A stretch of 64,000 nt of DNA. It comes from a phage. The stretch's first letter is position 1; each line of letters starts with the position of its first letter. Shown piece after piece: positions 17,587 through 49,156 of the stretch. The position numbers were made by a program, and so were the translations under genes. The stretch lies in NCBI GenBank assembly GCA_011939005.1, contig GCA_011939005.1_4858.1; one strand, 5' to 3'. Below the pieces are notes generated by a model. That model had not been told where the DNA came from. It ran no database searches and was given only the letters and a program-made list of their open reading frames with translations.

Positions 17587-18117
17587 TTAGAGATAGTGTT
17601 CCACTATCACTTCTAACTCGCGGAAGATATGTGCGGTTTGATTAAACAGCGTATCCTGTTCGGGTGTTTGTTTATCAAATGCACGCTGATACAGTTCTAA
17701 CATAGCGAAGACTGTGCGCAGTTTATCACGCGCGACTTCAGGATCGGATGCACCGAAATAATGATCAAGCCATCGTGGTTCTGAACTCTCTCCTTTTCTA
17801 TCGATTGCCTCAGGCAACTCTAACCAACGCTGATTGGGAATGTTGCTACTGGATACACGGTTATACTCAGAAATGAAGAATTCCAATCGCTCCACCAACG
17901 TGTCAAAATCTCGAATACGTAATTCGAGTTGTCCACGCAATGAAAAAGGAAGGTATTCTTTCCCATTATATTCCAGAGGCTCTGTAATGAGTTCTAAGCC
18001 CACCATCACTCTGTGCAGGGTGTTATGGGTATTCTTATGAAACTCAGCCTCCAAAGAGCGTCTGCGAGCTTCTACAGCCTTACGACGCAGGAGTGTTGAA
18101 AGCCATTTAAAAAGCAT
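17587..18117 (-). CDS. hypothetical protein
   Basis: 176-aa ORF, ATG start; divergent from plus-strand gene at 18194. Confidence 0.5.
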   Translation of the reverse strand: MLFKWLSTLLRRKAVEARRRSLEAEFHKNTHNTLHRVMVGLELITEPLEYNGKEYLPFSLRGQLELRIRDFDTLVERLEFFISEYNRVSSSNIPNQRWLELPEAIDRKGESSEPRWLDHYFGASDPEVARDKLRTVFAMLELYQRAFDKQTPEQDTLFNQTAHIFRELEVIVEHYL

Positions 18118-18193
18118 AGGTGTTATCCTATTATGAGATGTTGTCTCGGATAGATAATATCTGTCTGAGTTCTTTTTGAGATGAGGTTATCCC
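18118..18193. promoter_or_regulatory. divergent intergenic region carrying motif TAGATAATATCTGTCTGAG
   Basis: 76-bp gap between divergently oriented genes; contains near-palindromic AT-rich motif (18151-18169) shared with two other intergenic sites. Confidence 0.4.
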
Positions 18194-18664
18194 ATGAGCG
18201 AAGAAGTGAAATACCAAGCGTTCGACGGAGATGTGGACAACGAAGATTCGCTTCTCCGCCAAACACAACAGCTACGCGTTAAGCTCGTCACAGATATGGT
18301 GAACGACGGTGAAGTACACAAAGACTTAAAAGCCGTCGACCGAATCGAACGCCTAATCAACGGCATCGACAAACAGGTCATGACGAAGCGGAAAATTAAA
18401 GCTGCTGAGAAAGGCGCTGAGGCGACTCAAGATTTGGCCAACAGTTTAAACGGCTTCTTAATGACCCGTGCTGGCGTTGGTATCAAACGTCACGACGATG
18501 AAGAAGATTTAAATAACGGATACCAACCCACCGTCCCACAGATTGCCGCAGTACGGCCTCCGAAAGAAGGTGAGTTGGCACCAGTAGGCGAAAAGATTGA
18601 CGTTGACCAGATCATGGCGTCTGCGTTTGCGAGTCGTCGTCCTGCTGATGACGACGAAGACTAA
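18194..18664 (+). CDS. hypothetical acidic protein (plus-strand island)
   Basis: 156-aa ORF, ATG with RBS gaggt; acidic C-terminus ending DDDED; 3' end overlaps convergent gene by 53 nt. Confidence 0.45.
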   Translation: MSEEVKYQAFDGDVDNEDSLLRQTQQLRVKLVTDMVNDGEVHKDLKAVDRIERLINGIDKQVMTKRKIKAAEKGAEATQDLANSLNGFLMTRAGVGIKRHDDEEDLNNGYQPTVPQIAAVRPPKEGELAPVGEKIDVDQIMASAFASRRPADDDED

Positions 18665-19340
18665 ACAGCGCAGTGTCCTTTACGTCAGTACCGACGTATT
18701 GAGCAAGAAAACGGGTGGACTCCTTAAAGGGGTTCACCTTATCTCTTTTTATTTGCGCGATTGCTTCTTCCGTTAATTCGCTGGTCAGCATACTCGGTCG
18801 GGTAATCGTAAAATCCGGAATCGGTTTCTGGAAATGGCTCGCGTGTTGTTCTATCCACGGATACCAATCGTACATTATCCAACCATCCCATGCAGAAGCA
18901 AGTCGTCCTGGTGTAAGATCGCTGTGAGGAATAACAACGACGTCTACTTGCACTTCGTTGTAGTAGTAGCGCAGTTCTTCCAAAAACGCATGACGTTCTT
19001 CATCATCGAGATCAGCGTATGGCCACAGGTTAAACGTTAAGACAGGTCGCTCGATAGGAGCGTGCATCTGTATCGTCATTAACATTGCCTGTACTTCGTT
19101 CTTTAGCGTAAGCAACATTTCTGTTGGCTGCGCGTTCTGCAACGCGCGTTTATCACGCTCCGCGAACTTTTTATTCCAGTCCTGAATTCCTACCACTTCG
19201 GCCCACGCATCCGTGAACCGCATCCGATACACTTCTAAATCAAGCTTCTCTAATACATCAGGCTGCAACACTTTCGCCCAACCAATTCGTGTATCGAAGA
19301 TTGTGTCGATATCGACTAAGAAACGGCGTCCTAATCTCAT
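18612..19340 (-). CDS. hypothetical protein
   Basis: 242-aa ORF, ATG start, ATGA-coupled to upstream gene. Confidence 0.55.
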   Translation of the reverse strand: MRLGRRFLVDIDTIFDTRIGWAKVLQPDVLEKLDLEVYRMRFTDAWAEVVGIQDWNKKFAERDKRALQNAQPTEMLLTLKNEVQAMLMTIQMHAPIERPVLTFNLWPYADLDDEERHAFLEELRYYYNEVQVDVVVIPHSDLTPGRLASAWDGWIMYDWYPWIEQHASHFQKPIPDFTITRPSMLTSELTEEAIAQIKRDKVNPFKESTRFLAQYVGTDVKDTALFSLRRHQQDDDSQTQTP

Positions 19341-20005
19341 TCCGGGCGTCCTAAGTTGTTACCGATGTGCATTGCTTTAAAGTACGAAGACCATGTACGC
19401 GGCGCTTTTGAACTGGTACGCTCAGCCCCTTCCAGGTTGATGCGACCTTTACCGGTTTGCCGTAGCGATTGATAGAACGCACGTTGTAACGTATCGTTAC
19501 CACCACGCGCCCACAGGAACTCCTGGAGCGTTGAGTCGTGTCCATCCGAGTACATGATGTACGCTTCTGGAAACGAAACACCCGAAGCTTTGGAAGGCCC
19601 TACTACCTGACCTGAGAGTTTATCGCGGACTTTATCGTTCTTCGCCACCGCCATTTTCTTCTCATGCATCTGCGTCTGGCGACGTGCAGGCAGGCGGAAG
19701 ACTAAATGGGGGTAACGGGTACGCTGTAGGATACCGGTTTTCGGTTCCGTGAGCCACAGGCGCTGACACAAGCTCAGTCCCATCGCTTCGCAAATTTTAA
19801 TATTGCGCATATGGTCAATTTTGACCTTGCCACCAGTTGGGTTGTAAACAGGCAACCCTTCGCGCAGACGATTGAACTCTTCGTCAGACATTCGCGAGAA
19901 AGCGCGCTTGGCAGCTTCCGCGTTAATCCCGGTCGGGTCAACTAAGTTCAGTAACTGTAAAGCATAAGCTTCTGCTTTTTTTCGCCGTGCCGGGTCTAAT
20001 CTCAT
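19337..20005 (-). CDS. hypothetical protein
   Basis: 222-aa ORF, ATG start, coupled on both sides. Confidence 0.55.
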   Translation of the reverse strand: MRLDPARRKKAEAYALQLLNLVDPTGINAEAAKRAFSRMSDEEFNRLREGLPVYNPTGGKVKIDHMRNIKICEAMGLSLCQRLWLTEPKTGILQRTRYPHLVFRLPARRQTQMHEKKMAVAKNDKVRDKLSGQVVGPSKASGVSFPEAYIMYSDGHDSTLQEFLWARGGNDTLQRAFYQSLRQTGKGRINLEGAERTSSKAPRTWSSYFKAMHIGNNLGRPE

Positions 20006-22131: not shown

Positions 22132-22229
22132 CAGGTGTTACCTTTTTGCAGTTCTCGTACATAAGGTTTGGGTGATACGTAAAAGACTTACTATGTAGCC
22201 CAATCCCTTATATATTCGAGGTTGATAGA
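22132..22229. promoter_or_regulatory. divergent promoter region
   Basis: 98-bp AT-rich gap between divergently transcribed genes. Confidence 0.35.
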
Positions 22230-22985: not shown

Positions 22986-23040
22986 AAAGTAAGCAGTACC
23001 CACTCCCCTTACGGGAGTGGGTAGGCTTTATTTTATTTGC
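22985..23040. terminator. bidirectional rho-independent terminator
   Basis: Stem tacccactccc / gggagtgggta (22997-23023) flanked by A-run and ggctttattttatttgc. Confidence 0.7.
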
Positions 23041-23956
23041 ATTTAGAACCGTTGACAAATGTCGGCGGTATCCATTTCAAAATCTTTGTCCGATTCCCGT
23101 CACGTGGACCGAGCCAGTAAGTACACCAGTGTGCACGACGCATATGCGCACATCTGCTACCTTGTGTTCTTTTCTCCGTATCAGTATCAAATTCTTCAAG
23201 ATACTCGCTTTGTGCTTTTACGGTGGAGAGGACAGTCGGTTTAGATTTTGGTTCAATGTGGTAATTGGCGATACGTTTCTTTCCAGTTAATTGTCTCAGT
23301 TTGACGGGTGTAGGGTTGTGCGGGATCAGTGAGAATGTAAACATGGTAGCGCCGACAATGCGTAACGTTTTCTCATTGGCCGGCGTACCAGTTTCCGCCA
23401 CACGCAAGGATACAAAGCCGTCACCCACGTCCACGATTTCAAAGGTTTCCCCCTCGATACGTTTTCCAAAAATCATCATTGTTAAACAATCTTTCCCTTT
23501 AAACATTCGCCGACCGAAAACGTAAGTCTTTTCTTGGATACCGATATCTTTAGCGCGATAGCACACTGAAAAGGAGACGGCCCAACCGGGAATCTTGTCT
23601 ATCCAGCTGCGTGGTATCTCAGTGAGAACGTCGCCAAGTAGAACTTGTTCAAAAATATTAAGATCAAATTCCATTTGGATACCCCCGTATCGCCAGCCGT
23701 AGGCAAGAGACAGGAAGTCTGCGGTGCATTCTTCGGCGAAGCAGTTCTTTAGGAACGCCTCAATCGGTATAAAGTGCTGGCCTATCTCGCCACAATGGGC
23801 TATTGCGTATTGCTCGATGATGGCGGGATCTCCACTTCTGGATTTCACACGTTCGTCGATTTTAGTAAGACCGTTTAAGAAATTACTCGGGGATTCGCGC
23901 ATACCGATTACATCTACATTTACCGATTCTGCCAAATCAAAAAGAAAGCTGTCCAT
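23033..23956 (-). CDS. hypothetical protein
   Basis: 307-aa ORF, ATG with RBS aaggag. Confidence 0.55.
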   Translation of the reverse strand: MDSFLFDLAESVNVDVIGMRESPSNFLNGLTKIDERVKSRSGDPAIIEQYAIAHCGEIGQHFIPIEAFLKNCFAEECTADFLSLAYGWRYGGIQMEFDLNIFEQVLLGDVLTEIPRSWIDKIPGWAVSFSVCYRAKDIGIQEKTYVFGRRMFKGKDCLTMMIFGKRIEGETFEIVDVGDGFVSLRVAETGTPANEKTLRIVGATMFTFSLIPHNPTPVKLRQLTGKKRIANYHIEPKSKPTVLSTVKAQSEYLEEFDTDTEKRTQGSRCAHMRRAHWCTYWLGPRDGNRTKILKWIPPTFVNGSKCK

Positions 23957-23985
23957 TTAATACTCCTTTAGATTAATGGTCGATT

Positions 23986-24020
23986 AAAATAAAACTACGG
24001 ACACCCCGAAGAGTGTCCGT
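23986..24020 (-). terminator. rho-independent terminator
   Basis: Stem acggacac / gtgtccgt (23997-24020) with A-run 23986-23995. Confidence 0.55.
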
Positions 24021-24024
24021 TTAA

Positions 24025-24567
24025 CTAGAAATTGCCAATAGTGATGGGCTGCGTTGGCTCGACCACAATCAGTATTTCTTTCAGACGTGAAACGATATGC
24101 TCCCAGATCTGTGCTTCGAGGTGACGTAGCATAGTGGTGAACTCCTCCATATACATCTTTTTATACTCGTCGCGGTTGAGATGTTCCCACGCTTCTTTCA
24201 ATGGGCCTGCTTCCGGTCCAGACATCTTAATCATCATTTCGATGTCCTTCATTTCATCAAACGCTTTACCGACCTTATCAATAACCTCATCGGTCTTGAG
24301 TTCGAGTGAGAAGCGACCCATCTTAGACTGCAGGAAGCCGTCTTCAATGTCTTCGTCGTTGTATTCGAAACACGCAATACGTTGCGCGAGTTGATGAACT
24401 TCATTTACCGCGATATTGACGTACGCCGCAGAGATAAGTCCAGCGAGGTGTTGACGATCGATATTCTTCGGTATCAGATAGTCTTCACACTTACGCTTAA
24501 ACTCGAACAACGCCGCTGGAAATATTTCACGAAATTCGTCATCGAGTAAATCAATGAATATTTTCAT
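24025..24567 (-). CDS. hypothetical protein
   Basis: 180-aa ORF, ATG start. Confidence 0.55.
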   Translation of the reverse strand: MKIFIDLLDDEFREIFPAALFEFKRKCEDYLIPKNIDRQHLAGLISAAYVNIAVNEVHQLAQRIACFEYNDEDIEDGFLQSKMGRFSLELKTDEVIDKVGKAFDEMKDIEMMIKMSGPEAGPLKEAWEHLNRDEYKKMYMEEFTTMLRHLEAQIWEHIVSRLKEILIVVEPTQPITIGNF

Positions 24568-25103
24568 TCAACAGGTTTCCCATATTTCTCGCCGAGATAC
24601 AGCAGTTCGCGACGACAGATAGCCAGCACCTTCATCTCCGCCTCACGATACAGCTTGGTGATTTTGTCAATGATTGGCTGGTCAACGATATCGGACCATG
24701 TTACCGTATCCGTAACGTTCGACGTTTGCCCGTTAATGACCACAGCAACATATGTCTCGCCCAGGTTCTCTTGATGTAACCCCGCCAGAGATTCACCAAC
24801 CTTATCAAAGGCTTCACTCAATAAGTCGGTGATTTGGTCCGTCCCTTCTACCAGTTCAAAACGATGGGGATAGTTCAGAATGTTACGCAGCCGCGTGAAC
24901 ATACGCTCAATAAGCTGATTTACCATATCCCCAGTGTCACAGATAGTCACATCTACACCCGAACCTATTTCGTCAGACAAACGATTTTCGTGGACGGCCA
25001 ACGCATCGTGAAGTTCAAATTCCACGTCACGTTTTAATCCTAACAGAATTTCATCTAGCTGACGTCTCGACTCCGACAGAGCGAAGTCAATTACGATTTG
25101 CAT
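24564..25103 (-). CDS. hypothetical protein
   Basis: 179-aa ORF, ATG with RBS aaggag, ATGA-coupled to downstream gene. Confidence 0.55.
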   Translation of the reverse strand: MQIVIDFALSESRRQLDEILLGLKRDVEFELHDALAVHENRLSDEIGSGVDVTICDTGDMVNQLIERMFTRLRNILNYPHRFELVEGTDQITDLLSEAFDKVGESLAGLHQENLGETYVAVVINGQTSNVTDTVTWSDIVDQPIIDKITKLYREAEMKVLAICRRELLYLGEKYGKPVE

Positions 25104-25113
25104 CTAATGCTCC

Positions 25114-25521
25114 TTAAAAGTTACTTAACTCGGGCTGCGTATACCAGTATCTGCACGCTACGAGATCCACAACGTTATATTTCAGTTGTCCACCGTGCTG
25201 TGACGTGTCTGCCAATTCATGCGCAAGCTTGTACGCCAAGTCTTCACGGTTGTCGAGGATAAGCAACACAACACGCTGCACCTCATTAAAGATATCCGGT
25301 TCACGTAAACAACTGTAGCGCTCGCTAAGATGCTTAATAACGCCTTTATAAACATCTTCTGGTACAGCAGTGCCATTTTCTGCTACGTGGAATGAAACAA
25401 GCACGATTTTAATTAAAATCTCGACAACCATGGAGTATATCATTCCACGGTTGCCGTTAATTTCCACATGCTTTAGATACTCTTGCAAGTCCATCAATGA
25501 CTCGCTATACACCTTTAACAT
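25114..25521 (-). CDS. hypothetical protein
   Basis: ATG at 25521 has RBS aggtgg; track start 25587 would overlap the upstream gene by 55 nt. Confidence 0.5.
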   Translation of the reverse strand: MLKVYSESLMDLQEYLKHVEINGNRGMIYSMVVEILIKIVLVSFHVAENGTAVPEDVYKGVIKHLSERYSCLREPDIFNEVQRVVLLILDNREDLAYKLAHELADTSQHGGQLKYNVVDLVACRYWYTQPELSNF

Positions 25522-25532
25522 AGCGACCACCT

Positions 25533-25904
25533 CTAGTTGGTTGCCGGCCACACCCCTGGCGATGGGATTGCATCGTATCCACGCCATTTCTTAATGGCAA
25601 CAAGGCTAGTGCCTGGGGAGCCGTCTAAATCGAAACCGACGGTTGCAACCACATCAACTTCGGTTTCTAAGTTAGAGTGGCCGATCGGAGAGAGGTGGGA
25701 GAAGCTGACGACTTTACCGCCCTGGATGGCGGTATCTCGAACTATACGAGCCATCTGTCTTATTTCTTGAGAAACTGGGCCGCGTAGGGTGGTTACCCGC
25801 GACGATAACGTCAACCAGTTTTCGCTCTCGGGTGCGACTATGTACAGAATAGTCCCTTCTTTAAAGTATTGTTTAACCAGTGTTTCAAATTCGTCTTGCG
25901 TCAT
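25533..25904 (-). CDS. hypothetical protein
   Basis: 123-aa ORF, ATG with RBS aaggag. Confidence 0.5.
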   Translation of the reverse strand: MTQDEFETLVKQYFKEGTILYIVAPESENWLTLSSRVTTLRGPVSQEIRQMARIVRDTAIQGGKVVSFSHLSPIGHSNLETEVDVVATVGFDLDGSPGTSLVAIKKWRGYDAIPSPGVWPATN

Positions 25905-25917
25905 GTTAAATACTCCT

Positions 25918-26652
25918 TCAGTAGTTTAGTTTCTCAGCGACTTCTTTACGGATGCGACACATCACCACCATCGCACCATTCGGAATTTGGCTCACGCAGT
26001 TATCCGTGTAAAACTTACCTTCACAGAGATAAAAGTCCAGACACATGGCATCGGTCAGTTCGTGCCACAGTGTGCCGAAACCATACTGCCAAGGGCCGGA
26101 ATGAACGACATCGTAATCGCCATCAGTTATGCCAAATGCGGCAGTAGCGGAAGACCACAGTGTTGAGGAGGTGGTATAAGTGTCATACCAGTAACCGAGC
26201 AGTCGATGGTTACGACGTATCTCAGCTAACCGCTCGTACATTGGGATGAATACGTCCTCCACTTGCGTGACAAAATCAGCCAGCATCAACTTTTCCGTGA
26301 ACCACTCGATCCACGCAAAGATTTGTTCTTCAACGTCTTGTTGGCTTAACCCCGTGGCAGTAATGCCTTCTTCGTAGGTGTAACCTTCGTAGACGTCAAC
26401 AACATTAATCTCTACATGCTCTAGCGTGAACAACCGTTCGGTGTTGATGCAGTCGTACATCTCTTGTAACCACGCAGTGAAGACTTCTATACAGACGTTG
26501 ATGGCTGTATACTTGAATTCATCGCGCAGAGGATACCACTGTGGGTTATCCTTTAGTTCGTTCTTCGCGAACGCGGGCCAATGCTTTTCGAACAACGCTT
26601 CAAAGAACTGGGGCGTGAGGTTTAAAAGCACCGGCACTTCGACTTTAAGCAT
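25918..26652 (-). CDS. hypothetical protein
   Basis: 244-aa ORF, ATG with RBS aaggaga; preceded by motif TAGATAATATCTATCTCAG. Confidence 0.55.
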   Translation of the reverse strand: MLKVEVPVLLNLTPQFFEALFEKHWPAFAKNELKDNPQWYPLRDEFKYTAINVCIEVFTAWLQEMYDCINTERLFTLEHVEINVVDVYEGYTYEEGITATGLSQQDVEEQIFAWIEWFTEKLMLADFVTQVEDVFIPMYERLAEIRRNHRLLGYWYDTYTTSSTLWSSATAAFGITDGDYDVVHSGPWQYGFGTLWHELTDAMCLDFYLCEGKFYTDNCVSQIPNGAMVVMCRIRKEVAEKLNY

Positions 26653-26685
26653 CGTGAATAAATTCTCCTTAAGGTTACGTCCCTG

Positions 26686-26704
26686 TAGATAATATCTATC
26701 TCAG
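26686..26704. promoter_or_regulatory. conserved AT-rich near-palindromic motif (candidate promoter element)
   Basis: TAGATAATATCTATCTCAG; 13-bp core TAGATA-A-TATCTA is palindromic around its centre; lies between a stop codon and the next RBS. Confidence 0.4.
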
Positions 26705-26705
26705 A

Positions 26706-27446
26706 TTACTTTAAGAGATGCAAGAAGCGTGCTGCCTGTTCTGTAAAGTGAAAATACTCGATGGTATCAGGTTCGTCCGAGTGAATGTCGTCCGGGTCCA
26801 GCAGGTAGCCCGAGATATCATCCGTTAAAACCCAAGCGTCCCCTTGCAGGAAAATACCCATCGGTTTTTCTACCACGGGCATCACTAAGTCCGAATAAGA
26901 GTTACCTTCTGCTACCCTTACAATGTCTTCGCACGGGTCAACAATATACAGGTTGCAGAGACTGCGATCTTTAAGACTGCGATGAAACATCGCTCGATCG
27001 TACCAAATAACCTGAGAACAATTATCTTCGTCACCCGCCACATCGACCAACTCTGTCCAGAAACGATGTAAGAACCAGTTCAACGCACCGGTTATTAGCT
27101 CGTTCGGTTTCAGCATTCTAACGTGTTCGTCGTACAACTCTTCCATTGTCCAGATTCGACATTGCTCACGATCGATTGTCGGTAGCGGAGGTATTTGCGG
27201 CGGGACTTGTTTAGGCATCGGCTCATCACATCTTGCATTGTAACGCGCAATTGTTTCGGTAACCAGCTCTGCCACAACATCACAAGCCGCTTCAAATCCC
27301 CACTTGTACAACACGTCGTAATCTTCCATGGGCGCAGCACCGAACTCACGGTTCGTTGCCATCCACGACATCCATCCGTATTGCTCCACACAGTTAATCA
27401 GACTTTGTGTGTGGAGCGTGAGCGATTCACTCACGACTCGCAACAT
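26706..27446 (-). CDS. hypothetical protein
   Basis: ATG at 27446 has RBS gaagaagaggtg and sits just after the upstream stop; track start 27506 overlaps by 59 nt. Confidence 0.55.
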   Translation of the reverse strand: MLRVVSESLTLHTQSLINCVEQYGWMSWMATNREFGAAPMEDYDVLYKWGFEAACDVVAELVTETIARYNARCDEPMPKQVPPQIPPLPTIDREQCRIWTMEELYDEHVRMLKPNELITGALNWFLHRFWTELVDVAGDEDNCSQVIWYDRAMFHRSLKDRSLCNLYIVDPCEDIVRVAEGNSYSDLVMPVVEKPMGIFLQGDAWVLTDDISGYLLDPDDIHSDEPDTIEYFHFTEQAARFLHLLK

Positions 27447-27447
27447 G

Positions 27448-28962
27448 TTACACCTCTTCTTCTCGCAGTATGCGACGGTTTGCGTAATACGCACACCACA
27501 ACCCATGATACTCTTTACCGATATAGATTAAGAAGTAACGGATGTAGTATTTTTCAGGACGACACACCGCGATGTAATAACGGCCTTCCGGTTCTTTAAT
27601 ACGGTTGATTTCCGTACGCGATGGAATATCGATACCGCGAGTCAAAATAACCGAGACAGGTCGTTTACCCATCGGAAAGTCGATCTTTAACGTTATTGAC
27701 TTATCGACGCTACGGTAGTATTCCTTGACAGGTTTACCTTTGTCGTCGAATAGCAAGTCGGTAATGTCGTTTAAGACATAACCCTTTTCCTGATGCAGAA
27801 CATCTCTCAACGTTGTAGCGAGTTCGTCACGAATATCCAGCGCACGGTACGACAATAAGGGCGGGCGAAGCATTCTGGAGATGGCCAGGTCTTCAAAGAA
27901 CCAGACATTAGAATCCTCCCCACTGAAATGCATCTTGTCTGCCGGCAATCCGTCGCCTGCCACATCAACGAATTTCTTACGCTTAACGAACTCATTGTTA
28001 ACAACGCCAATTGGATCATACTGCCGCATCTTCGGTGTATCTTTCCATGCCAGGGCGGCGTGGTTGTTTACAATCGTGTAGATGTTATCCCACGGTTGTT
28101 TAGTGAACATTACGGAAAAGTGTGCATCGGGAATCATTTTCCCAATAAACACCAAGTCGTCCTTGTTCTTTGCATGGTTGCCACCAAACATGTAATAGAA
28201 AGTTTCATCTTTCACTTTTACAGTAGGATGGTCTTCGTTCACCAACGGATAGCAATATTTAACCGTACAAATCGGCGGATATGCCGCAAGGTTCATCCCA
28301 GCGGCGATGGGCTCGGGTTCCGCGGATGCAGGCAACTCATCCTTCGACCAGTACGGCTGATATGGAACACCGTCGTTGGTCGCGGTGATAGCTGAACCTT
28401 TTCTAGCCAATTCGTCCGCCCGGTCGTTACCGTAGTGGCCGGAGTGTCCTTTGATTTTGATAACCTTAACACCCCGTCCTTCTTTTTTCATCTGCTGTTT
28501 GATTTCCCAGATACGAACAATAAGTTCTTTGTTCGCCAGCGGAGTACCATCAGCACGAACCCAACCACGTTTATGCCAGCCGTCTATCCACTCGTTAAAA
28601 GTGTTTACAACGTAACTGGCATCCACGTAGATGATATAGTTCTTCGCACGGAATGGCGCATTCTCAAACAACGTGATGAAGGCGATTAACTCGCCCACAT
28701 CTGAGTAGAACTCTTTCGGAACGGGAATAACGGCGTCGACAAATTGAACGGTGTCCGGCAACTCCGGACACTTCACATCCTGCGGCACTTTTTTGTATCC
28801 AACAGTGGTAATCCGTTCTGAAACACCCGGATGGCTATAAGCCTGACTGTCTTCCAAATCTCCGTTGTTGAATAAATAACCATGAATACCAGCCCCCGAA
28901 CCTTTCGGGGACTCAGTATGACTACCATCGGTATAAATAACCGCTACGTCGACGTCTTTCAT
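27448..28962 (-). CDS. RNase HI-domain protein with long C-terminal extension of unknown function
   Basis: N-terminal ~190 aa: VIYTDGS, ELIAFI, YVDASYV, WHKRGW, KGHSGHYGNDRADELARKG (RNase HI signature); total 504 aa. Confidence 0.8.
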   Translation of the reverse strand: MKDVDVAVIYTDGSHTESPKGSGAGIHGYLFNNGDLEDSQAYSHPGVSERITTVGYKKVPQDVKCPELPDTVQFVDAVIPVPKEFYSDVGELIAFITLFENAPFRAKNYIIYVDASYVVNTFNEWIDGWHKRGWVRADGTPLANKELIVRIWEIKQQMKKEGRGVKVIKIKGHSGHYGNDRADELARKGSAITATNDGVPYQPYWSKDELPASAEPEPIAAGMNLAAYPPICTVKYCYPLVNEDHPTVKVKDETFYYMFGGNHAKNKDDLVFIGKMIPDAHFSVMFTKQPWDNIYTIVNNHAALAWKDTPKMRQYDPIGVVNNEFVKRKKFVDVAGDGLPADKMHFSGEDSNVWFFEDLAISRMLRPPLLSYRALDIRDELATTLRDVLHQEKGYVLNDITDLLFDDKGKPVKEYYRSVDKSITLKIDFPMGKRPVSVILTRGIDIPSRTEINRIKEPEGRYYIAVCRPEKYYIRYFLIYIGKEYHGLWCAYYANRRILREEEV

Positions 28963-29681
28963 TATTCTCCTCGCAACTGCGGTGGAATGTATTCACCTGT
29001 GCACATTTCGCGGTGAGCTTCTAACATGCGTTCGAAGCCGTACGTACGCGCGACCAGGGCCAAATGATAGATGCGTGCCGTAGAATACGCTTCCTTCGCA
29101 GCATCAAAGTTAGCGTTATGCTCGTACGCTTCTTTGCCGCGGGTCCAATGGTGCGCTTCTGCGTGCCAGTTCGGTTCCAGGCCAAACGCATATGCAATAC
29201 GTTCTGCAGTCCGGTCAGAGTCCAATATAGAAAACTTGCGGTACTTGCCCGGCGGGATATCGCACTGCGCGAATGCGTTCATCAGAATTGGAGCATCGAA
29301 ATCGGGACCACGCATGGTGATAACCATTTTCACGTTGCCCAGATCATCCAACCATTTTTTGGCCGCCCACAGCGCTTCTGGCAGTGGAGTGGTCCCAGAA
29401 AACGCTTCAATACGTGCTTTCTCGCTCGGTGCGTATTCGGGGTCGCCTTTACCTTCCCAATAACCGACCGTTTGTGGATCGATGTAGAAGATTTCTTTTG
29501 CTTTTGCATCATTGGGGTCGATTTTGTGGTAACATGAACCGATCATTTTCATTGTCGGAACATCGAATGCCACGTTTGCCAACGTTAAGATGTAGGCATC
29601 TGGACGTAAAGCCAGGGTCTCTAAGTCCGTCCCAACAACAACGGTGGGCGTTAAAACAGGCAGAATTTTAGGATATGTCAT
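28962..29681 (-). CDS. putative DnaQ-like 3'-5' exonuclease (T4 DexA-like)
   Basis: 239 aa; Exo I-like motif VVGTDLETLAL and further blocks (DFDAPILMNAF, AHHW) aligning by eye to T4 exonuclease A; stop overlaps RNase H start by 1 nt. Confidence 0.6.
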   Translation of the reverse strand: MTYPKILPVLTPTVVVGTDLETLALRPDAYILTLANVAFDVPTMKMIGSCYHKIDPNDAKAKEIFYIDPQTVGYWEGKGDPEYAPSEKARIEAFSGTTPLPEALWAAKKWLDDLGNVKMVITMRGPDFDAPILMNAFAQCDIPPGKYRKFSILDSDRTAERIAYAFGLEPNWHAEAHHWTRGKEAYEHNANFDAAKEAYSTARIYHLALVARTYGFERMLEAHREMCTGEYIPPQLRGE

Positions 29682-29726
29682 TTCAACTCTCCACGAGATT
29701 ATATATCACACTATTGACTATTAACG

Positions 29727-29765
29727 TAAAAAAGGAAATCCCCTCTTACCCGAAGGTAAGAGGGA
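29727..29765 (-). terminator. rho-independent terminator (UUCG loop on minus transcript)
   Basis: Stem ccctcttacc / ggtaagaggg with loop cgaa (29741-29764), A-run 29728-29733. Confidence 0.55.
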
Positions 29766-29769
29766 GTTT

Positions 29770-30249
29770 TCATTGCACAAGGCAACTACTTTTGTGCCGT
29801 TCGTAGGCACGATTAAAAGACTCTCTGTCTTCGCGATAGCCGCGAATGAGAGACTTAATCTGTCGTGACAAATCACGACTAATGTCTTGAGGGCTACGAG
29901 AACCAGGGTCGAGATATATCCCGGAGGGTATACCATGAAGAGTGGGGCGAATAAACTCTTCACAAAGCGGTGCGGTCATCGGGGTGTGCCACCCTTTAGC
30001 TTCTGCATAGTTGTTTACTGACTTAGCGTACAGATAAACGTAATAAGCATAAGCGTTCACATCCGCAACAAACATTTTCCCTGCCAGCTTTTTCGCCTCA
30101 GGACTGTTCCCACCGTTATATACTGGTGGGTGTTCTAAAGGACGAAAAGGCCAATCTCCGGTTGAGGAGTAATCTGGGTCTACGTGACGGATGACCCCAG
30201 GGCATCCTGTCAACAATAGCACCAGTATCGCCACCAAAAATAACTTCAT
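29770..30249 (-). CDS. putative lipoprotein
   Basis: 159 aa; N-terminus MKLFLVAILVLLLTGC has signal peptide with lipobox LTGC; ATG with RBS gaggag overlapping end of upstream gene. Confidence 0.55.
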   Translation of the reverse strand: MKLFLVAILVLLLTGCPGVIRHVDPDYSSTGDWPFRPLEHPPVYNGGNSPEAKKLAGKMFVADVNAYAYYVYLYAKSVNNYAEAKGWHTPMTAPLCEEFIRPTLHGIPSGIYLDPGSRSPQDISRDLSRQIKSLIRGYREDRESFNRAYERHKSSCLVQ

Positions 30250-30258
30250 GTATGCTCC

Positions 30259-30768: not shown

Positions 30769-30792
30769 GCTCACCTCGGAGAGTTTTTAATT

Positions 30793-32172: not shown

Positions 32173-32182
32173 GGAGGGTTAA

Positions 32183-34375: not shown

Positions 34376-34969
34376 TTACGCTTCGGCCTCAAAGAACGGC
34401 TGGTTCGGTACCACTGCATATTCGAGCACGAAAAGATGTTCTGGGGCATCTTCTGCTCGCCACAGTTTGTGACACGTTGCCAGTTTTTCCAGGATGGTCA
34501 ACCAGCTGAGCTGGCAGAAAGCACGGTCGCCGAAGAACAGTTTCTGCAGTGCAATCGACACATCCATATACGCCTGTTTGAAGTCGAGTTCTTTATCGTA
34601 ACCCGCCGACTGTCGCCACGTCAGCACGAAACCTGCTTCGGTTTCGTTAATTGCTGGACGTAAACCACAAATCCACATCAGCGCCAGATTAACGTTCCAG
34701 TCGAATTCGATACCTTCGTCTTCGTCATCACCAAACGCCGCGTTTAACGCATCGTAGAAACCGTGGTTCTCTGCGAACCATTCGCCATACTCAACGTATA
34801 CCGGTGCTTCGACAGCTTCCCCATCGACTTCACCGATAGGACGCTCTACATAGTTCGGGTTGGTTTGAACGTGTTCCGCACCCGCGCGAATTAATTCGTA
34901 GACATCTTTGGCGGTGATTTGTGCGGCTGTTTTAAGACCTGGATACCAGGGGCGTGTTACGAGTGTCAA
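34376..34969 (-). CDS. hypothetical protein (apparent TTG start)
   Basis: 197 aa; no in-frame ATG/GTG near the 5' end; TTG at 34969 has strong RBS aaggag and overlaps upstream stop by 4 nt. Confidence 0.5.
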   Translation of the reverse strand: MTLVTRPWYPGLKTAAQITAKDVYELIRAGAEHVQTNPNYVERPIGEVDGEAVEAPVYVEYGEWFAENHGFYDALNAAFGDDEDEGIEFDWNVNLALMWICGLRPAINETEAGFVLTWRQSAGYDKELDFKQAYMDVSIALQKLFFGDRAFCQLSWLTILEKLATCHKLWRAEDAPEHLFVLEYAVVPNQPFFEAEA

Positions 34970-35688
34970 AGCAATGCTCCTTTCATGATAGTGTTATTTG
35001 CCAGTAGTGTACCGGCCGCAGGTGATATTTTGGTGTACAGCGTATCCCAGATTTTCTGAAGCTCAGCGACGCGTTGGTCGCGGTCTTCCTTCGCAAAAGC
35101 AAGCTGACGTGTTTCAGCTTTCGGTGGCGTCATTTTCGCACCGTAGAATGCTGCGTCTTTTCGGTAGCTGGCCATCCAGCGTTTCCCGACCGATGATTTC
35201 TTTTTAATCATCGCAACAGCAGCGCTCTCACCGAAGCGGTAGCCTAATGCGATTTCGGCTGTGCTCGGCTTGCGTTTGAGTTGTTTTGTCAGATGATCCT
35301 CGATGTGTTTCATGTAAACAGCAGCAAGCTGTACAGCATATTTCGGTTTATTAAGGTCTGCGTTCTTTGGGATGTTAAGTTGTTTCCCATACAGACGTAT
35401 CATGGAGCGTTTAGTGCCTGTCGTCATTTGGACAACACTACTAGCACTGCTCGATTTATTCTTACCCACGTTTTTATTAAAACGGGATTCGCGGTAAATG
35501 GTGGTCGCAAGCATCCCGGCATGTACACCTTGCTTTTGAGATGCAGAGACGATGAGAGGTTTAATCTCATTGAACTGGTCCTGGATAAGGACGAATTCTT
35601 TTTGGTGTTTGTTACTGGTGGTCTGGTAAGAAGCGTTGCTGTTGAATGTGGTCACTGCTACCAGAAGAAATAAAATGGTGCGAAACAT
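34966..35688 (-). CDS. secreted lytic transglycosylase-like protein (candidate endolysin)
   Basis: 240 aa; N-terminal signal peptide MFRTILFLLVAVTTFNSNA; ESRFNKNVGKNKSSSASSVVQMTTGT aligns with the SLT motif of the large virion protein at 1-4578. Confidence 0.55.
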   Translation of the reverse strand: MFRTILFLLVAVTTFNSNASYQTTSNKHQKEFVLIQDQFNEIKPLIVSASQKQGVHAGMLATTIYRESRFNKNVGKNKSSSASSVVQMTTGTKRSMIRLYGKQLNIPKNADLNKPKYAVQLAAVYMKHIEDHLTKQLKRKPSTAEIALGYRFGESAAVAMIKKKSSVGKRWMASYRKDAAFYGAKMTPPKAETRQLAFAKEDRDQRVAELQKIWDTLYTKISPAAGTLLANNTIMKGALL

Positions 35689-35779
35689 GGATGTATCTCC
35701 AAACGGATTTATACTTTTCCGTTCCCAATCCGGGAAGACGGCGCGGACGGCATTGTGCTCCTTTGTAATGTGCCCTGAT

Positions 35780-35791
35780 GATAATATCTAT
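35780..35791. promoter_or_regulatory. conserved motif GATAATATCTAT (third copy)
   Basis: Exact 12-mer also at 26688-26699; overlaps the stop codon of the gene at 35788-36288 and lies upstream of the secreted SLT gene. Confidence 0.35.
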
Positions 35792-36288
35792 TTGAAACTT
35801 TTTGGGATGATTTTCTCTGCTTCCCTCAGCAGGGTGTCCGGTAAATAGAATCGATAAGTCTGCTCCGTGTGCTGTAGTCTTTTCTGTAAGTGTATAAAGA
35901 TTTCCAATCGCTCATGGTAACGTAACCAACCGTTAGCCATCCCTAGGGGCGGTATCGCAATCCCTCCTTCTAAGTCTTCCCCTAGTCGCGCCAGCGCATC
36001 AATGCCGGACGTGACATAGTAAATCTGCGATTTATAGCGAAAATGGGTTTTAGTAGGAAGGAGTATTACCCCTTCCTCAGGATAACAATAGACCTCACCG
36101 ATAACGATTTGCTCTTTACGACATTTCTGGCGATAGTCATTATAAAGCGATGGGAAGCGTTCTCGGCACGCCAAAGCAATGCCCCTTCCCATTGCACCAA
36201 CACAGTTAACTGTAACGACCTTGAAGCGCTCAGGCGCGTTAAACAGGTCGTGGGAGATAATAGCCTCGTCGATCAGTTCTAGTGACAT
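35788..36288 (-). CDS. putative macro-domain (ADP-ribose-binding/processing) protein
   Basis: 166 aa; VVTVNCVGAMGRGIALACRER resembles the macro N-terminal Gly-rich motif and IAIPPLGMANGWL resembles the C-terminal phosphate-binding loop. Motif-level only. Confidence 0.45.
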   Translation of the reverse strand: MSLELIDEAIISHDLFNAPERFKVVTVNCVGAMGRGIALACRERFPSLYNDYRQKCRKEQIVIGEVYCYPEEGVILLPTKTHFRYKSQIYYVTSGIDALARLGEDLEGGIAIPPLGMANGWLRYHERLEIFIHLQKRLQHTEQTYRFYLPDTLLREAEKIIPKSFK

Positions 36289-43126: not shown

Positions 43127-43255
43127 TTGCTTAATCCTTACGGGTAATAGTCGATTAAAAAGGACCCTGCGGCTAAGTGTTGGGGAGATCACCGCAGGGC
43201 CAAAGTGAGATGGGTCGTCATCTCACGTTATAACATCTGTCTGAAAACTTTTCGG

Positions 43256-44085: not shown

Positions 44086-44577
44086 TTATTCTGAATAGTC
44101 GATTGTTTTGATGGTTTCCATACCGTAGTACATAGCGATGGAGGCCAGAGTTTTGGTATCAGGTCGCTGTACAAAACCGGCCCTGAAATCTTTGCTGCAA
44201 ATTTTCTCCACTGATAGTTCATCACGATTAGGGATAAGCCATAACGCGTCACCGTTGTGACGGTCGACTGCACCCCACCAACCACCTGGGCAATCTTTAT
44301 CGCCCGGACGGTGTACGATAGCGACACGTCCGTTGAAGGATATGTCAACTACACGACACTGTTTCTTAAGCAGCTTACGCGCATTGCACCAGAACGGCTT
44401 ATCATTAAGATTGATGGTGCGGGTATATGCTGGAATGCTGCCGTTAATACTGCCCTGGAACCCGCTGAATTCGTCAGCGCGTGCCTTAGAAATCCGTAGC
44501 CCAACAACAACTGCCATCAACAGCACAGTAAAAAGCACCACCTTAATCAGGTGGTGATTAACGTTATTGCATTTCAT
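44086..44577 (-). CDS. secreted Cys-containing protein (paralog family member 3)
   Basis: ATG at 44577 (RBS ggaga) gives N-terminus MKCNNVNHHLIKVVLFTVLLMAVVVGL; motif KDCPGGWW. Confidence 0.5.
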   Translation of the reverse strand: MKCNNVNHHLIKVVLFTVLLMAVVVGLRISKARADEFSGFQGSINGSIPAYTRTINLNDKPFWCNARKLLKKQCRVVDISFNGRVAIVHRPGDKDCPGGWWGAVDRHNGDALWLIPNRDELSVEKICSKDFRAGFVQRPDTKTLASIAMYYGMETIKTIDYSE

Positions 44578-44965
44578 TTTTGATATCTCCACGAATGAGG
44601 GTGATGCGACCAACGAGCACATCGTTGTGATAAAAACTCACAGCAACCAGATCTGGCAATTCCAACGGCGATACGCTGACCGAAGTGACTTTTGGTTGAT
44701 CGCACGATATGTCGATTAATCGCTGATACATTTTCAGTTTCTTATCAGCGATAACCAGCCCTGTGCAGTTCTTACCATCCGTCAGTTTGTAGATTTGTAA
44801 CTGTTCGACCTCACGCATCAGTTCCGGTTTTTCATTCGGTGCAATGCCATAATCCGAATCAGCTGATGTGTATTCAGTCACGTCTGGCTTATCGAAAGCA
44901 TAAGTTGCTGCGATACCACATGCGGCCAGAACTACTACTGCTTGTAAGAACTTCTTGATAGTCAT
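44564..44965 (-). CDS. putative lipoprotein (paralog family member 4)
   Basis: 133 aa; signal peptide with lipobox VVLAACG; motif KNCTGLVI. Confidence 0.5.
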   Translation of the reverse strand: MTIKKFLQAVVVLAACGIAATYAFDKPDVTEYTSADSDYGIAPNEKPELMREVEQLQIYKLTDGKNCTGLVIADKKLKMYQRLIDISCDQPKVTSVSVSPLELPDLVAVSFYHNDVLVGRITLIRGDIKNEMQ

Positions 44966-45020: not shown

Positions 45021-45069
45021 TTGAGTTAATCTCTTAACTCTCACCTAAGTAATATATATCTGAGATATT

Positions 45070-45657
45070 TTACAATGTGAACGTTGTGTTAAGAATACGA
45101 AAACCCAATGCTCGCTTAGCGATTTGCATATTTGCAGGCGTGAAGTCCACCAGTTTGATTTGAACGATCGATAAATCGTAAAGCTTGTGAAGCACTTCGA
45201 TTTTGTGTCGCCAATCTGTTTTTTGGTGCAGCTCTATCGTCGTTGGTATCTCGCCTAGTCTCGGCAACTGTGCTCCAAGTAAACGATGATGGACTTTACC
45301 GTTTATAGTTGGGGTGCCTTCCGTGACCATCAGTCGCGCATCGATGTAGTTATTTCGCTTAGCGTACTCCATAAAAGTTTTGACATTTATCTTTTCCTCG
45401 TATAGAATGCTGCGAAAGTATTCGTAAATGATGTGTCCTGCCTCCCTACCGCTTTCCGAGTCCGGAATAACCTTATCGATGAAAATCGCAGAGACCACTT
45501 CGTTCCCACGCGAATGCATTGTAATGACCCTGTCCCCGTGCTGCGCAGAAGTTATTAACCCACTTACATCAAGCCCCACTGGGAACAAGCCGCGACTACG
45601 CATTACGTGCAGGTCTTCTAACCTGTTCTCTTGCAGTCGTAAAATACGTTCTGTCAT
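45070..45657 (-). CDS. hypothetical protein
   Basis: Track start 45666 is GTG; ATG at 45657 has RBS gaggtg. Confidence 0.55.
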   Translation of the reverse strand: MTERILRLQENRLEDLHVMRSRGLFPVGLDVSGLITSAQHGDRVITMHSRGNEVVSAIFIDKVIPDSESGREAGHIIYEYFRSILYEEKINVKTFMEYAKRNNYIDARLMVTEGTPTINGKVHHRLLGAQLPRLGEIPTTIELHQKTDWRHKIEVLHKLYDLSIVQIKLVDFTPANMQIAKRALGFRILNTTFTL

Positions 45658-47478: not shown

Positions 47479-48717
47479 TTACAGTAAACGCAAATCTGCG
47501 ACAAACAACAGTTGACGGCCGTACTTAGTCACTTCTTTCCAGCCATTGTTAACACCCCATTTGATGATAGCGTCGTAATGCCACTGTTTCAGTTCGTTGG
47601 TACCCCACGCATCCCGTACCGCCTTCGCCGACATCAAATAAGCAGGTTCGGCAACGGAGCGCATTTCAGAATCTGGCAGGCGAGAAACAACGGAACTGTT
47701 CACGCGCTGCAGTGTACCGGACACCTGTATCCAGAACGCAGGCGATATTGTATTTGTCGGTCGACAGTCAAATACCCAGGCCGTGTCATTTTCACTGGCC
47801 GGGGTCTTGCGTTTATAGATGCTTAACAGTATTTCTGACTGGATAACTTCGCGGAAAACAGCAAGAAGTGCGATGACTTTCTCATTAACCACCTCATCCT
47901 TTTCGACCTTATAGTAATCTTTAAGGTTTCCGGGCTCTGCTATCGGCATTACTGACCAAACATCGGCGTCTAACATCTCACCGAAATAATGGTTAGCGTT
48001 TTCATCAGATGTCCAGAACATCGTATTACCGTCATTGGCAGTGGTGGCTAGATCACGCAGTGCTTCCTTGGTGTCTTCGTCAATTTCCACAGGTTTGGCT
48101 GCTTCACGCGGTGCGTTTTTCGTGTAGAATCTGCGCTTGCTTACCGCTCTATTCCATACGGTAGTAATTTGGTACGCAGTGAATTCGGGGAACTGCTGCA
48201 CCAACACTTCCGCATCAACATCAAGCCGCTCTGAATTAAAGTTTTGTAATTTCTCATTAAACCCTGTATTCAGCTCTCCGCCAGTCCACCAGTTGCTGTC
48301 GCTTAGTGCAGGCATGTCAGGTGTTAACTCGAACACCGGTTTACCGGTCAGCAGAGTAAGAATGTAGTGCACCCACATTGTGTTACCCTCAGCAATGGCG
48401 CGTCCGATGTTTTGATTACCCGATAGGTAAGCTACACGCGAATCCCCTTCGAATGTCATGGTTAACTCAACCCACGGCGCTAAGTCAGAGACGTGGTGGC
48501 CTAAACGGCACTTTACTTCCCCTTTGTCAAGCAGCCGCTTTTCGACAACGGTTGAGAGCTTTTGTGGCAGGCACGCACAATCCTGCCACGTTACGTCGCT
48601 GTAAGCCATACTCCGAATATTGAACTGCATTCCCAACAGTACAATTGTGTTAGTAATTACTGCATTAAAGAATGCTTCTTTCGGTGTCTGGTAAACTAAT
48701 TCGTATTCGTTATACAT
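47479..48717 (-). CDS. hypothetical protein
   Basis: Track start 48753 is TTG without RBS; ATG at 48717 has RBS aaggaaa; about 412 aa. Confidence 0.55.
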   Translation of the reverse strand: MYNEYELVYQTPKEAFFNAVITNTIVLLGMQFNIRSMAYSDVTWQDCACLPQKLSTVVEKRLLDKGEVKCRLGHHVSDLAPWVELTMTFEGDSRVAYLSGNQNIGRAIAEGNTMWVHYILTLLTGKPVFELTPDMPALSDSNWWTGGELNTGFNEKLQNFNSERLDVDAEVLVQQFPEFTAYQITTVWNRAVSKRRFYTKNAPREAAKPVEIDEDTKEALRDLATTANDGNTMFWTSDENANHYFGEMLDADVWSVMPIAEPGNLKDYYKVEKDEVVNEKVIALLAVFREVIQSEILLSIYKRKTPASENDTAWVFDCRPTNTISPAFWIQVSGTLQRVNSSVVSRLPDSEMRSVAEPAYLMSAKAVRDAWGTNELKQWHYDAIIKWGVNNGWKEVTKYGRQLLFVADLRLL

Positions 48718-48838
48718 TTGGTATTTCCTTTTAAAGTACACTAAAGTGACCAAAAAATGTTACTAAAGAACAGTTGGTGTTTAAGCGACTGTGGGTTTAT
48801 ACACAATGCTCACTAAGATGACATCTATCTGTAAAAAC

Positions 48839-49156
48839 TTAGTATACGACCAGTACGATGCAGTCATCGATAGCCAGATTCAGTAATGAGTAGTCGTTAC
48901 TTAACCGCTGGTAACGCATCCCTTTTTCAAACCGACTTAGTTGTTCAGTCGGCATGACGTATACCGCGCTTTGCACTACTCCCGTAAACAGTTCGTCGTA
49001 GAACTGGTCTACTTCCCCGACTTTGTAAAAGCGCATTCTTTGATTGTTAGCAAAGACGCTATCTAGCTTCCCGTTACTGGCTTTCTGTAACGCAGTAAAG
49101 GCACTGTCTGCATCATTACGCTCTAATGCACTTTTAATGGTTTGAAATAAAGACAT
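48839..49156 (-). CDS. hypothetical protein
   Basis: 105-aa ORF, ATG start. Confidence 0.45.
   Translation of the reverse strand: MSLFQTIKSALERNDADSAFTALQKASNGKLDSVFANNQRMRFYKVGEVDQFYDELFTGVVQSAVYVMPTEQLSRFEKGMRYQRLSNDYSLLNLAIDDCIVLVVY

Follow-up and report, generated by a model that had tools for sequence, protein, structure and literature searches.

A strand-specific 37-bp element at gene junctions of an SPN3US-like jumbo phage is a probable early promoter of the phiKZ type

The early operons of jumbo phages that encode their own RNA polymerases are preceded by a highly conserved, AT-rich motif of about 10 nt centred near -10 and, according to a review, bioinformatic searches can find such a motif in every RNAP-encoding jumbo phage (PMC7598289). 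For Pseudomonas phage phiKZ, early promoters were mapped experimentally and their number is given as 28-32 (PMC8244752, PMC10914365): 28 by Ceyssens et al. 2014, as that study is cited in PMC8244752 and PMC13282480, and 32 by Wicke et al. 2020 (PMC8244752). A primary start with the early motif was reported before phiKZ gp54 (PMC8244752). In Bacillus phage AR9, 41 early sites with the consensus AAATATATATTAT-(6N)-G(+1) were identified by dRNA-seq, and phiKZ and phiR1-37 also start 6 nt after an extended AT-rich element; in AR9 a predicted early promoter can be inactive when a single base departs from the consensus (PMC5312081). SPN3US-type phages have a split multisubunit virion RNA polymerase (vRNAP) and encode a second, non-virion enzyme (nvRNAP) (PMC5694885, PMC7598289). 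The vRNAP subunits of SPN3US have been described (PMC5694885, PMC5312081).

The stretch of DNA analysed here, referred to as the window, is 64,000 nt long and 97.7-99.1% identical to Salmonella phage SPN3US, a Seoulvirus, by megablast, with its orientation reversed with respect to the RefSeq record. Judged by its sequence, the window phage is an SPN3US-like, phiKZ-related jumbo phage. One of its genes, as identified by homology, shows that the phage has its own polymerase system:

19337..20005, minus strand: RNA polymerase beta-type subunit fragment gene (phrog_3233 'RNA polymerase beta subunit', E = 5e-93)

The SPN3US homologue of this gene is the virion RNAP subunit gp218, likewise annotated as an RNA polymerase beta subunit in RefSeq, and beta-type fragments are annotated across the SPN3US genome in RefSeq. 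The product of SPN3US 23886-25493 matches the nvRNAP subunit PHIKZ068 (PDB 7OGP chain B).

An earlier note on this DNA had pointed to a 10-mer, GATAATATCT, with three copies that were all at gene boundaries and with an expectation far below one per window. Both statements were borne out by the sequence and the map of open reading frames. There are exactly three copies, at 18153-18162, 26688-26697 and 35780-35789, all on the plus strand; the expected count is 0.07 by dinucleotide shuffling, and at least three copies were found in none of 100 dinucleotide shuffles. The copy at 18153 is inside a divergent intergenic region. The copy at 26688 follows the stop of ORF 27506..26706 and precedes the RBS and start codon (ATG) of ORF 26652..25918. 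The third copy, at 35780, overlaps the stop codon (TAG) that ends the macro-domain ORF 36288..35788, and the SLT gene 35688..34966 is located downstream of it (these four genes are on the minus strand). Other parts of the description had to be modified. The inverted repeat TAGATA-N-TATCTA, on which the emphasis had been placed, is exact at 26686-26698 and matches at 5/6 positions at the two other copies, but variants of the same family carrying TATATATTAC lack it. The 10-mer had been read on the plus strand. All copies are flanked by minus-strand genes, and the element has a strong asymmetry; its functional form is therefore AGATATTATC, read on that strand. Finally, the conserved unit is not limited to the 10-mer; it extends over 37 bp, with one block near -30, another near -20 and an invariant G six bases after the core.

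The extent of the element became apparent in the SPN3US genome, which was put together from five annotated pieces and scanned with an iterated position weight matrix (PWM). The coding strand of SPN3US contains AGATATTATC nine times and the opposite strand does not contain it at all; copies with one mismatch are embedded in a long common context. The PWM identified 23 sites, all on the coding strand. The distribution of scores is bimodal, with these sites at 30-47 bits followed by a gap down to the next best match at 10 bits. The consensus in SPN3US is TCnAAAnnATTTCAGATA[G/T]ATATTA[T/C]CTnnGTGAGA, where the G of GTGAGA that comes after GT is the predicted +1. It consists of the blocks TCnAAA (about -32 to -27), ATTTCAGATA (about -24 to -15) and [G/T]ATATTA[T/C] (-14 to -7), followed by six bases and the G. 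The columns with the highest information in the matrix are those of [G/T]ATATTA[T/C], at -14 to -7 from the invariant G, and AGATATTATC is the -16 to -7 core of this strand-specific element. It is replaced by TATATATTAC at six of the SPN3US sites. A G located exactly six bases 3' of ATATTA[T/C] is present in 23/23 SPN3US sites and in 5/5 window sites, its role as +1 being a prediction.

The same words emerged from an unbiased k-mer scan. Maximal-order Markov statistics are too conservative for a long motif with enriched sub-words, and an order-2 background was used. ATAGATATTAT, AGATATTATCT and GATATATATTAC were among the most over-represented strand-specific words, and their neighbours in the ranking were Shine-Dalgarno/RBS words and terminator T-runs. 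A scan of IMG/VR for AGATAGATATTATCT produced mostly chance matches in unrelated contigs, a 15-mer not being long enough for this collection; contigs of about 224-243 kb accounted for a few of the matches.

A held-out PWM, trained on the 18 SPN3US sites that are outside the window's region, detected exactly five sites in the window, all on the minus strand, at 23-44 bits. The maximum over 200 simulated 64-kb windows had a mean of 4.0 bits and never exceeded 14.8. The sites, the genes downstream of them and one degenerate copy are as follows:

18143..18179, minus strand: site P1, TCAAAAAGAACTCAGACAGATATTATCTATCCGAGAC; predicted +1 G 18147; 37.0 bits with the held-out and 39.7 with the full PWM
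18117..17587, minus strand: ORF downstream of P1, 176 aa, phrog_8650; ATG 18117; 30-nt leader with RBS
26678..26714, minus strand: site P2, which includes the copy singled out by the earlier note, TTAAAGTAATCTGAGATAGATATTATCTACAGGGACG; predicted +1 G 26682; 31.3 bits held-out, 37.5 full PWM
26652..25918, minus strand: ORF downstream of P2, 244 aa, phrog_8219; ATG 26652; 30-nt leader with RBS AAGGAG
35770..35806, minus strand: site P3, CCCAAAAAGTTTCAAATAGATATTATCATCAGGGCAC; predicted +1 G 35774; 23.0 bits held-out, 31.5 full PWM
35688..34966, minus strand: SLT transglycosylase gene downstream of P3; ATG 35688; 86-nt leader
45038..45074, minus strand: site P4, a TATATATTAC variant, TGTAAAATATCTCAGATATATATTACTTAGGTGAGAG; predicted +1 G 45042; 44.4 bits held-out, 45.2 full PWM
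44965..44564, minus strand: ORF downstream of P4, 133 aa, phrog_9424; ATG 44965; 77-nt leader
48807..48843, minus strand: site P5, ACTAAGTTTTTACAGATAGATGTCATCTTAGTGAGCA; predicted +1 G 48811; 31.6 bits held-out, 36.3 full PWM
48717..47479, minus strand: ORF downstream of P5, 412 aa, phrog_33648; ATG 48717; 94-nt leader
43219..43255, minus strand: degenerate copy, CCGAAAAGTTTTCAGACAGATGTTATAACGTGAGATG, one base short between core and G; 7.8-10.3 bits, within the null range

P1 is in the divergent intergenic region that ORF 18117..17587 has in common with ORF 18194..18664 on the plus strand, and the 5' end of P2 overlaps the stop codon of the upstream gene (26706-26708). The weakest site, P3, overlaps the TAG codon that ends the macro-domain gene; Pfam recognises a Macro domain in 36288..35788 and an SLT domain (1.4e-6) in 35688..34966. 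P5 has its SPN3US counterpart in site 161923. The predicted +1 positions of P1 to P5 correspond to SPN3US positions 191621, 184063, 174973, 165706 and 161938, respectively. Degenerate relatives of the 10-mer had been suspected near 45040, 48795 and 29700. The first two correspond to P4 (45038-45074, 44 bits) and P5 (48807-48843, 32 bits), but the third (29687-29723) scored 1 bit with the held-out PWM, has no match at the orthologous place in related phages and was discarded.

P4 is the best-scoring site of the window. Its leader consists of a 5' hairpin (45040-45023), a terminator-like hairpin with a T-run (45019-44991), AATCGACTAT and the ATG at 44965, and folds with -23 kcal/mol (z = -4.5). 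The presence of a hairpin resembling an intrinsic terminator so close to the predicted start is an observation in its own right; an RNA of about 52 nt, from 45042 to about 44991, would be predicted, and may be a small RNA or the product of an attenuator. Downstream of the degenerate copy at 43219-43255 there are likewise a 5' hairpin and then a long hairpin with its T-run, before AATCGACTATTA and the next gene.

In SPN3US, too, the sites are mostly at gene boundaries. According to the RefSeq annotation 22/23 sites are intergenic or reach no further than the final codons of the preceding gene, the other one, 25230, being within a coding region. With an ORF finder that deliberately over-calls, 19/23 predicted starts are intergenic, in a genome in which intergenic DNA is 4.7% (P = 4e-22). 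When the G is taken as +1, the predicted leaders across SPN3US are mostly 26-57 nt long.

Comparison with related phages was done using SPAsTU, pEa_SNUABM_29, Asesino and phiEaH2, whose coding DNA is about 67-73% identical here. The element was found at the orthologous junctions for 4/5 window sites, and the fifth site is outside the compared stretch. SPAsTU and pEa_SNUABM_29 have exactly the P1 37-mer of the window, and the Asesino and phiEaH2 sites score 39-41 bits. At P2 neither the A.ATAGAT.TTATCT core nor the RBS varies in the alignment with the four relatives, while the upstream coding sequence is scrambled. The P4 sites of the relatives score 41-46 bits and those of P3 15-21 bits. In SPAsTU and pEa_SNUABM_29 the orthologue of the degenerate copy has the spacing intact and reaches 29 and 37 bits, respectively. 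A core that is kept while its flanks diverge argues for a function.

These data bear on whether the element is an RNA processing or cleavage site located between cistrons or a functionless repeat that originated by chance or recombination. Some copies overlap stop codons, and would hence be present in a read-through polycistronic RNA, which speaks for a processing site. Six of the 23 SPN3US copies, however, are in divergent intergenic regions, where an upstream transcript on that strand is not expected and a new transcription unit must start. A scan of the window against Rfam gave no match, and no RNA structure was found for the element. Chance is ruled out by the shuffles, the k-mer scan and the held-out PWM, and the conservation of the core amid diverging flanks is not what a functionless repeat would display. 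We consider both forms of this explanation extremely improbable.

The near-palindrome AGATA-T-TATCT could also be the operator of a dimeric phage regulator that times or shuts off operons, instead of a site for a polymerase. There is indeed partial dyad symmetry about the central T, with a mean of 7.5/13 pairs per site compared to 3.25 +/- 1.6 genome-wide, and in three divergent regions of SPN3US the core is followed after six bases by a G in the mirror orientation as well, with a divergent start codon 22-60 nt away. Nevertheless, the family is asymmetric. In the reverse orientation scores reach at most 15-17 bits versus 37-40 (30-47 across the SPN3US family), and the plus-strand mirror of P1 is itself at 15-17 bits; 23/23 copies are oriented alike with respect to the gene that follows; nothing mirrors the conserved blocks at -20 and -30; and the six TATATATTAC variants do not have the 6-bp repeat. 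In phiKZ the counterpart is similarly symmetric (6.4/13) simply through alternating A and T. The three options in the earlier note were a phage promoter containing a -10 element, an operator and an RNA processing site. The first fits the results, but the other two account poorly for orientation and position: they leave unexplained the strict orientation, the fixed distance to the start codon and the match to the phiKZ early promoters described below. An operator is, for these reasons, very unlikely.

If the element is a promoter, the host enzyme has to be considered. The core hexamers TATTAT or GATAAT differ from TATAAT at one or two positions in an AT-rich region, as would be the case if one of them were the -10 box of a sigma-70 promoter used by the Salmonella RNA polymerase. 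This candidate was rejected on a sigma-70 consensus scan of positions 17000-36900, which did not report the sites 18143-18179, 26678-26714 or 35770-35806 on the minus strand and in which sigma-70-like sites were not enriched (22 versus 27 +/- 5 in shuffled sequence). No TTGACA-like block is found at -35, and the information sits where sigma-70 is indifferent, i.e., in CAGATAG and in the G six bases past the core. Besides, phiKZ-type phages develop without need of the host RNAP (PMC7598289, PMC13282480). There is hardly any probability left for recognition by the host polymerase.

Coliphage N4 offers a precedent for promoters used by a polymerase that is injected from the virion, and its vRNAP promoters also have some dyad symmetry (PMC4496689). 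Unlike the enzyme of SPN3US-type phages, the N4 polymerase has a single subunit, and its promoters are extruded as DNA hairpins in which a stem of 5-7 bp carries a loop of 3 nt (PMC4496689), whereas the symmetry of the window sites has a 1-nt centre. Single-strand DNA folding of the five window 37-mers gave 0 to -3.1 kcal/mol, with z values of -1.8 to +0.9 and without a common structure. A hairpin promoter of the N4 type was ruled out by these results.

The phiKZ genome was scanned for comparison. TATATTAC occurs 33 times on the plus strand and nine times on the minus strand of the phiKZ genome, and a matrix iterated in the same register finds 33 sites in that genome, all on the plus strand, including one before gp54; the number is close to that of the 28-32 early promoters known from mapping. 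Their consensus, T.AAA...ATTTAAGATCTATATTAC......G, aligns column for column with the SPN3US element, and the phiKZ TATATTAC sites have the same register, TcAAA..ATTTaAGATcTATATTAC-6N-G. The correlation between the phiKZ and SPN3US frequency matrices is r = 0.675 at offset 0 and does not exceed 0.32 at other offsets. The matrices also find each other's sites: the seven best matches of a PWM built from seven phiKZ sites in the 240-kb SPN3US genome are all members of the family, and the best match of the SPN3US PWM in phiKZ is the site before gp54. Both phages share T(C)nAAA near -30, ATTT..AGAT near -20 and TATATTAC/ATATTAT at -14 to -7, followed by six bases and G. In both, all sites are on the main coding strand (33/33 in phiKZ, 23/23 in SPN3US), and the leaders are comparable, about 30-55 nt in SPN3US-type sites and typically 31-40 nt in phiKZ (PMC8244752). 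There are also differences. Most SPN3US-type copies have GATATTATCT rather than TATATTAC, their CAGATAG block is stronger, and GAGA from +1 is conserved in them. The phiKZ sites were mapped by experiment, whereas those of SPN3US-type phages are predicted from sequence.

AR9 has an identical ATATTAT core, the same 6-base spacer to a conserved G start, and an extended AT-rich conserved element before early operons that was located by motif over-representation. It differs in that its DNA contains uracil and the upstream part of the element is made of A/T only, where SPN3US-type sites have CAGATAG; the hosts and the phages are only distant kin. In Pseudomonas phage 201phi2-1, when compared at the level of the description given in PMC11512511, early promoters likewise show conservation at -10, -20 and -30 and an AT-rich motif about 10 bp before the start.

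Taking together the likeness to phiKZ and AR9 and the placement of the sites, we propose that the element is probably (a probability of roughly 0.85) an early promoter of this SPN3US-like, phiKZ-related jumbo phage, recognised by the virion RNA polymerase. The defining features of phiKZ-type early promoters are present at the level of sequence, and the reading at the level of expression is by analogy: in this way we infer that the G would be the real start, the virion polymerase the enzyme and the timing early. In the proposed mechanism, the split multisubunit polymerase, carried in the virion and entering the cell along with the DNA, would recognise the 37-bp element and transcribe rightwards, i.e., on the minus strand of the window, from the invariant G. 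Short leaders, mostly 26-57 nt, would then bring the RBS of the first gene in each early operon.

The genes that follow the sites in SPN3US are consistent with this proposal. By tblastn, the homologues of phiKZ gp55, gp68, gp71-74 and gp123, i.e., the nvRNAP genes, are directly preceded by SPN3US sites or belong to operons that begin with one. The PDB match to PHIKZ068 confirms the homology for gp68. This placement follows an expected logic, since the injected polymerase must make the second polymerase (PMC13282480). None of the 23 SPN3US sites precedes a block of virion structural genes. Other sites directly follow the gene of the major capsid protein and that of the macro-domain protein, at exactly the places where early sites are found in phiKZ; as with P3, phiKZ has an early-type site directly 3' of its macro-domain gene gp104. 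The positions of the promoters are only partly conserved between the two phages, given that the phiKZ RNase H region, orthologous to the neighbourhood of 26688, is on the strand without early sites. The 617-aa gene after SPN3US sites 15618 and 15711 adjoins the gp55 homologue. Its position would suit the nuclear-shell protein, the counterpart of gp54, but this identity is not claimed, since neither a PDB hit nor a significant BLASTP match to gp54 was obtained.

The same neighbourhoods raise another possibility, namely that the promoter serves the non-virion polymerase, or a middle class of genes, and not the injected virion enzyme. The window copies precede neighbourhoods of the nucleic-acid-metabolism type (RNase H, exonuclease, SLT), which may be middle genes, and in 201phi2-1 some nvRNAP genes are transcribed from middle promoters (PMC11512511). 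Among the genes directly downstream of the window copies, the one with an assigned function is the SLT transglycosylase gene after 35770-35806. The middle and late promoters of phiKZ, however, are weak, with TACT at -22 and TATG at the start, and are bioinformatically unpredictable (PMC7598289, PMC8244752). The element is instead long, highly conserved and in register with the phiKZ early matrix, and it precedes nvRNAP genes, which need to be transcribed before nvRNAP exists. We therefore regard a middle promoter as unlikely and favour the early promoter of the virion polymerase.

Individual copies may differ in activity. Considering that single-base deviations can inactivate predicted early promoters of AR9, the weaker copies at 35770-35806 and 43219-43255 may, by analogy, be inactive.

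AATCGACTATTA is a second conserved word of the leaders, found also directly after terminators without the early element. In the window it has this placement at 23983, 43154 and 44983(-), a further position being 44102, and it is conserved in the Seoulvirus and Erskinevirus relatives. A tentative and rather doubtful extension of the early-promoter reading is a family with two architectures. Class A, which includes AGATATTATCT, could be characterised by leaders that are short (about 26-30 nt) and unstructured, and by a place at the start of operons for nvRNAP and other core machinery. In class B (CAGATATATATTACYTAGGTGAGAG) a 5' stem-loop could start the transcript and be followed, 12-20 nt before the RBS, by AATCGACTATTA as an extra element, possibly an nvRNAP promoter or a site of post-transcriptional control. 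Class A sites that are near-palindromic could fire both ways at divergent junctions, such as that of 18143-18179. If true, AATCGACTATTA would be the first bioinformatically visible nvRNAP promoter of a jumbo phage and, as such, would provide dual early and later expression, as in AR9.

No new kind of element was revealed by this analysis. Comparable motifs are reported from all jumbo phages that encode RNAPs (PMC7598289), and the element is most probably the Seoulvirus version of the already known phiKZ/AR9-type early promoter. What is gained for annotation is five operon starts with a predicted +1 in the window and 23 in an SPN3US-type genome. The sites mark the genes that are likely to be the first expressed from the injected DNA, those of the second polymerase included. 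The promoter grammar, ATATTA[C/T] followed by six bases and G, together with the blocks at -20 and -30, is common to jumbo phages of Salmonella, Erwinia, Pseudomonas and Bacillus, and is useful for phage engineering and for understanding how a multisubunit polymerase that lacks a sigma factor finds its promoters.

The early sites, 37-bp strand-specific elements read as promoters of the virion RNA polymerase, occur in two subtypes. Significant 5'-terminal stem-loops (z -2.1 to -4.3) open the predicted transcripts of six sites with the variant core TATATATTAC and of one hybrid site with the core AGATATTACC, and the leaders at these sites are 50-77 nt long. Leaders at most sites of the main type, AGATATTATC, measure 26-30 nt and are without structure. 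phiKZ likewise has two sequence subtypes of early site, AAACAGTATATTAC and AAGATCTATATTAC, and the latter precedes genes of the second, non-virion phage RNA polymerase.

Early sites with the variant core, and the hybrid site, in the reference genome SPN3US
4431, hybrid site
56298, variant core
65417, variant core
94243, variant core
113990, variant core
165691, variant core, orthologue of window 45038-45074
223281, variant core

The predicted transcript of the promoter at 45038-45074 (window 45042-44991, minus strand) begins with the 5' hairpin, which is directly followed, ahead of the coding gene, by an intrinsic-terminator-like hairpin, GGCUACCuccgGGUAGCC, and a U-run. The folding energy of this leader is -23 kcal/mol (z = -4.5). 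The terminator is kept in SPAsTU and pEa_SNUABM_29 and not in Asesino or phiEaH2, and an Rfam scan of the window gave no match for the hairpin region. This arrangement would yield an RNA roughly 52 nt long, or it would serve as an attenuator.

At window 43255-43110 (minus strand) an early element has decayed, and the spacing between its core and the G at the predicted start is short by one base. This copy scores 8-10 bits, versus 29-37 bits for its counterparts in SPAsTU and pEa_SNUABM_29. Downstream of it, a 5' hairpin comes first, then a second hairpin that is long, rich in GC and provided with a T-run, then AATCGACTATTA and the next gene. The region may encode a small RNA, or it may be a leader subject to attenuation.

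At the divergent junction, the early element is an extended palindrome with an 11-pair stem and a 3-nt loop (window 18145-18169, + strand; 18135-18171). Since the palindrome is followed on the + strand by TTCTTTTT, 18145-18169 was flagged as terminator-like. Read in the mirror orientation, the element scores 15-17 bits, the top reverse-strand score in the genome, and a G lies six bases past the core and 26 nt ahead of the ATG of the ORF at 18194-18664 (+ strand). The mirror geometry at SPN3US 15618 and 28973 is comparable.

Within the 86 nt that lead into the SLT gene is an upstream ORF of 14 codons with a strong RBS, AAAGGAGCACAATG (window 35753-35709, minus strand). Its ATG is not kept in SPAsTU, pEa_SNUABM_29, Asesino or phiEaH2; GTCCGCGCCG, located just after this ATG, is conserved in these four phages.

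We infer from sequence comparison that about 1 kb of the window is extra relative to SPN3US, because the coordinate offsets of the sites at 18162 and 26697 differ and because the SPN3US match begins only at query base 48. The extra DNA includes one ORF, for which no Pfam match was found.

23033-23956, minus strand, ORF of 307 amino acids
24020-23960, minus strand, strong terminator and AATCGACCATTAATCTAAAGGAGTATTAAATG upstream of this ORF

The leader of this ORF is almost the same as those at SPN3US 65456 and 94281.

A second conserved word, (A)ATCGAC[T/C]AT(TA), is also strand-specific.

Copies of the second word
Window 44983-44976, minus strand
Window 44102-44095, minus strand
Window 43154-43147, minus strand
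Window 23983-23976, minus strand
SPN3US 4479
SPN3US 23832
SPN3US 65456
SPN3US 94281
SPN3US 114031
SPN3US 166645
SPN3US 167593
SPN3US 223319
SPN3US 224198

It is one of the 10-11-mers most strongly over-represented in the genome, and its 10- and 11-mer forms, AATCGACTAT and AATCGACTATT, have 0 copies on the opposite strand. Leaders of early sites with the TATATATTAC core carry it at about +26 to +35; it is also present without an early element, immediately 3' of terminator T-runs. An RBS lies 12-20 nt downstream of the copies, and one copy is kept in all four relatives examined. The word may define promoters of a second class, or it may exert control within leaders.
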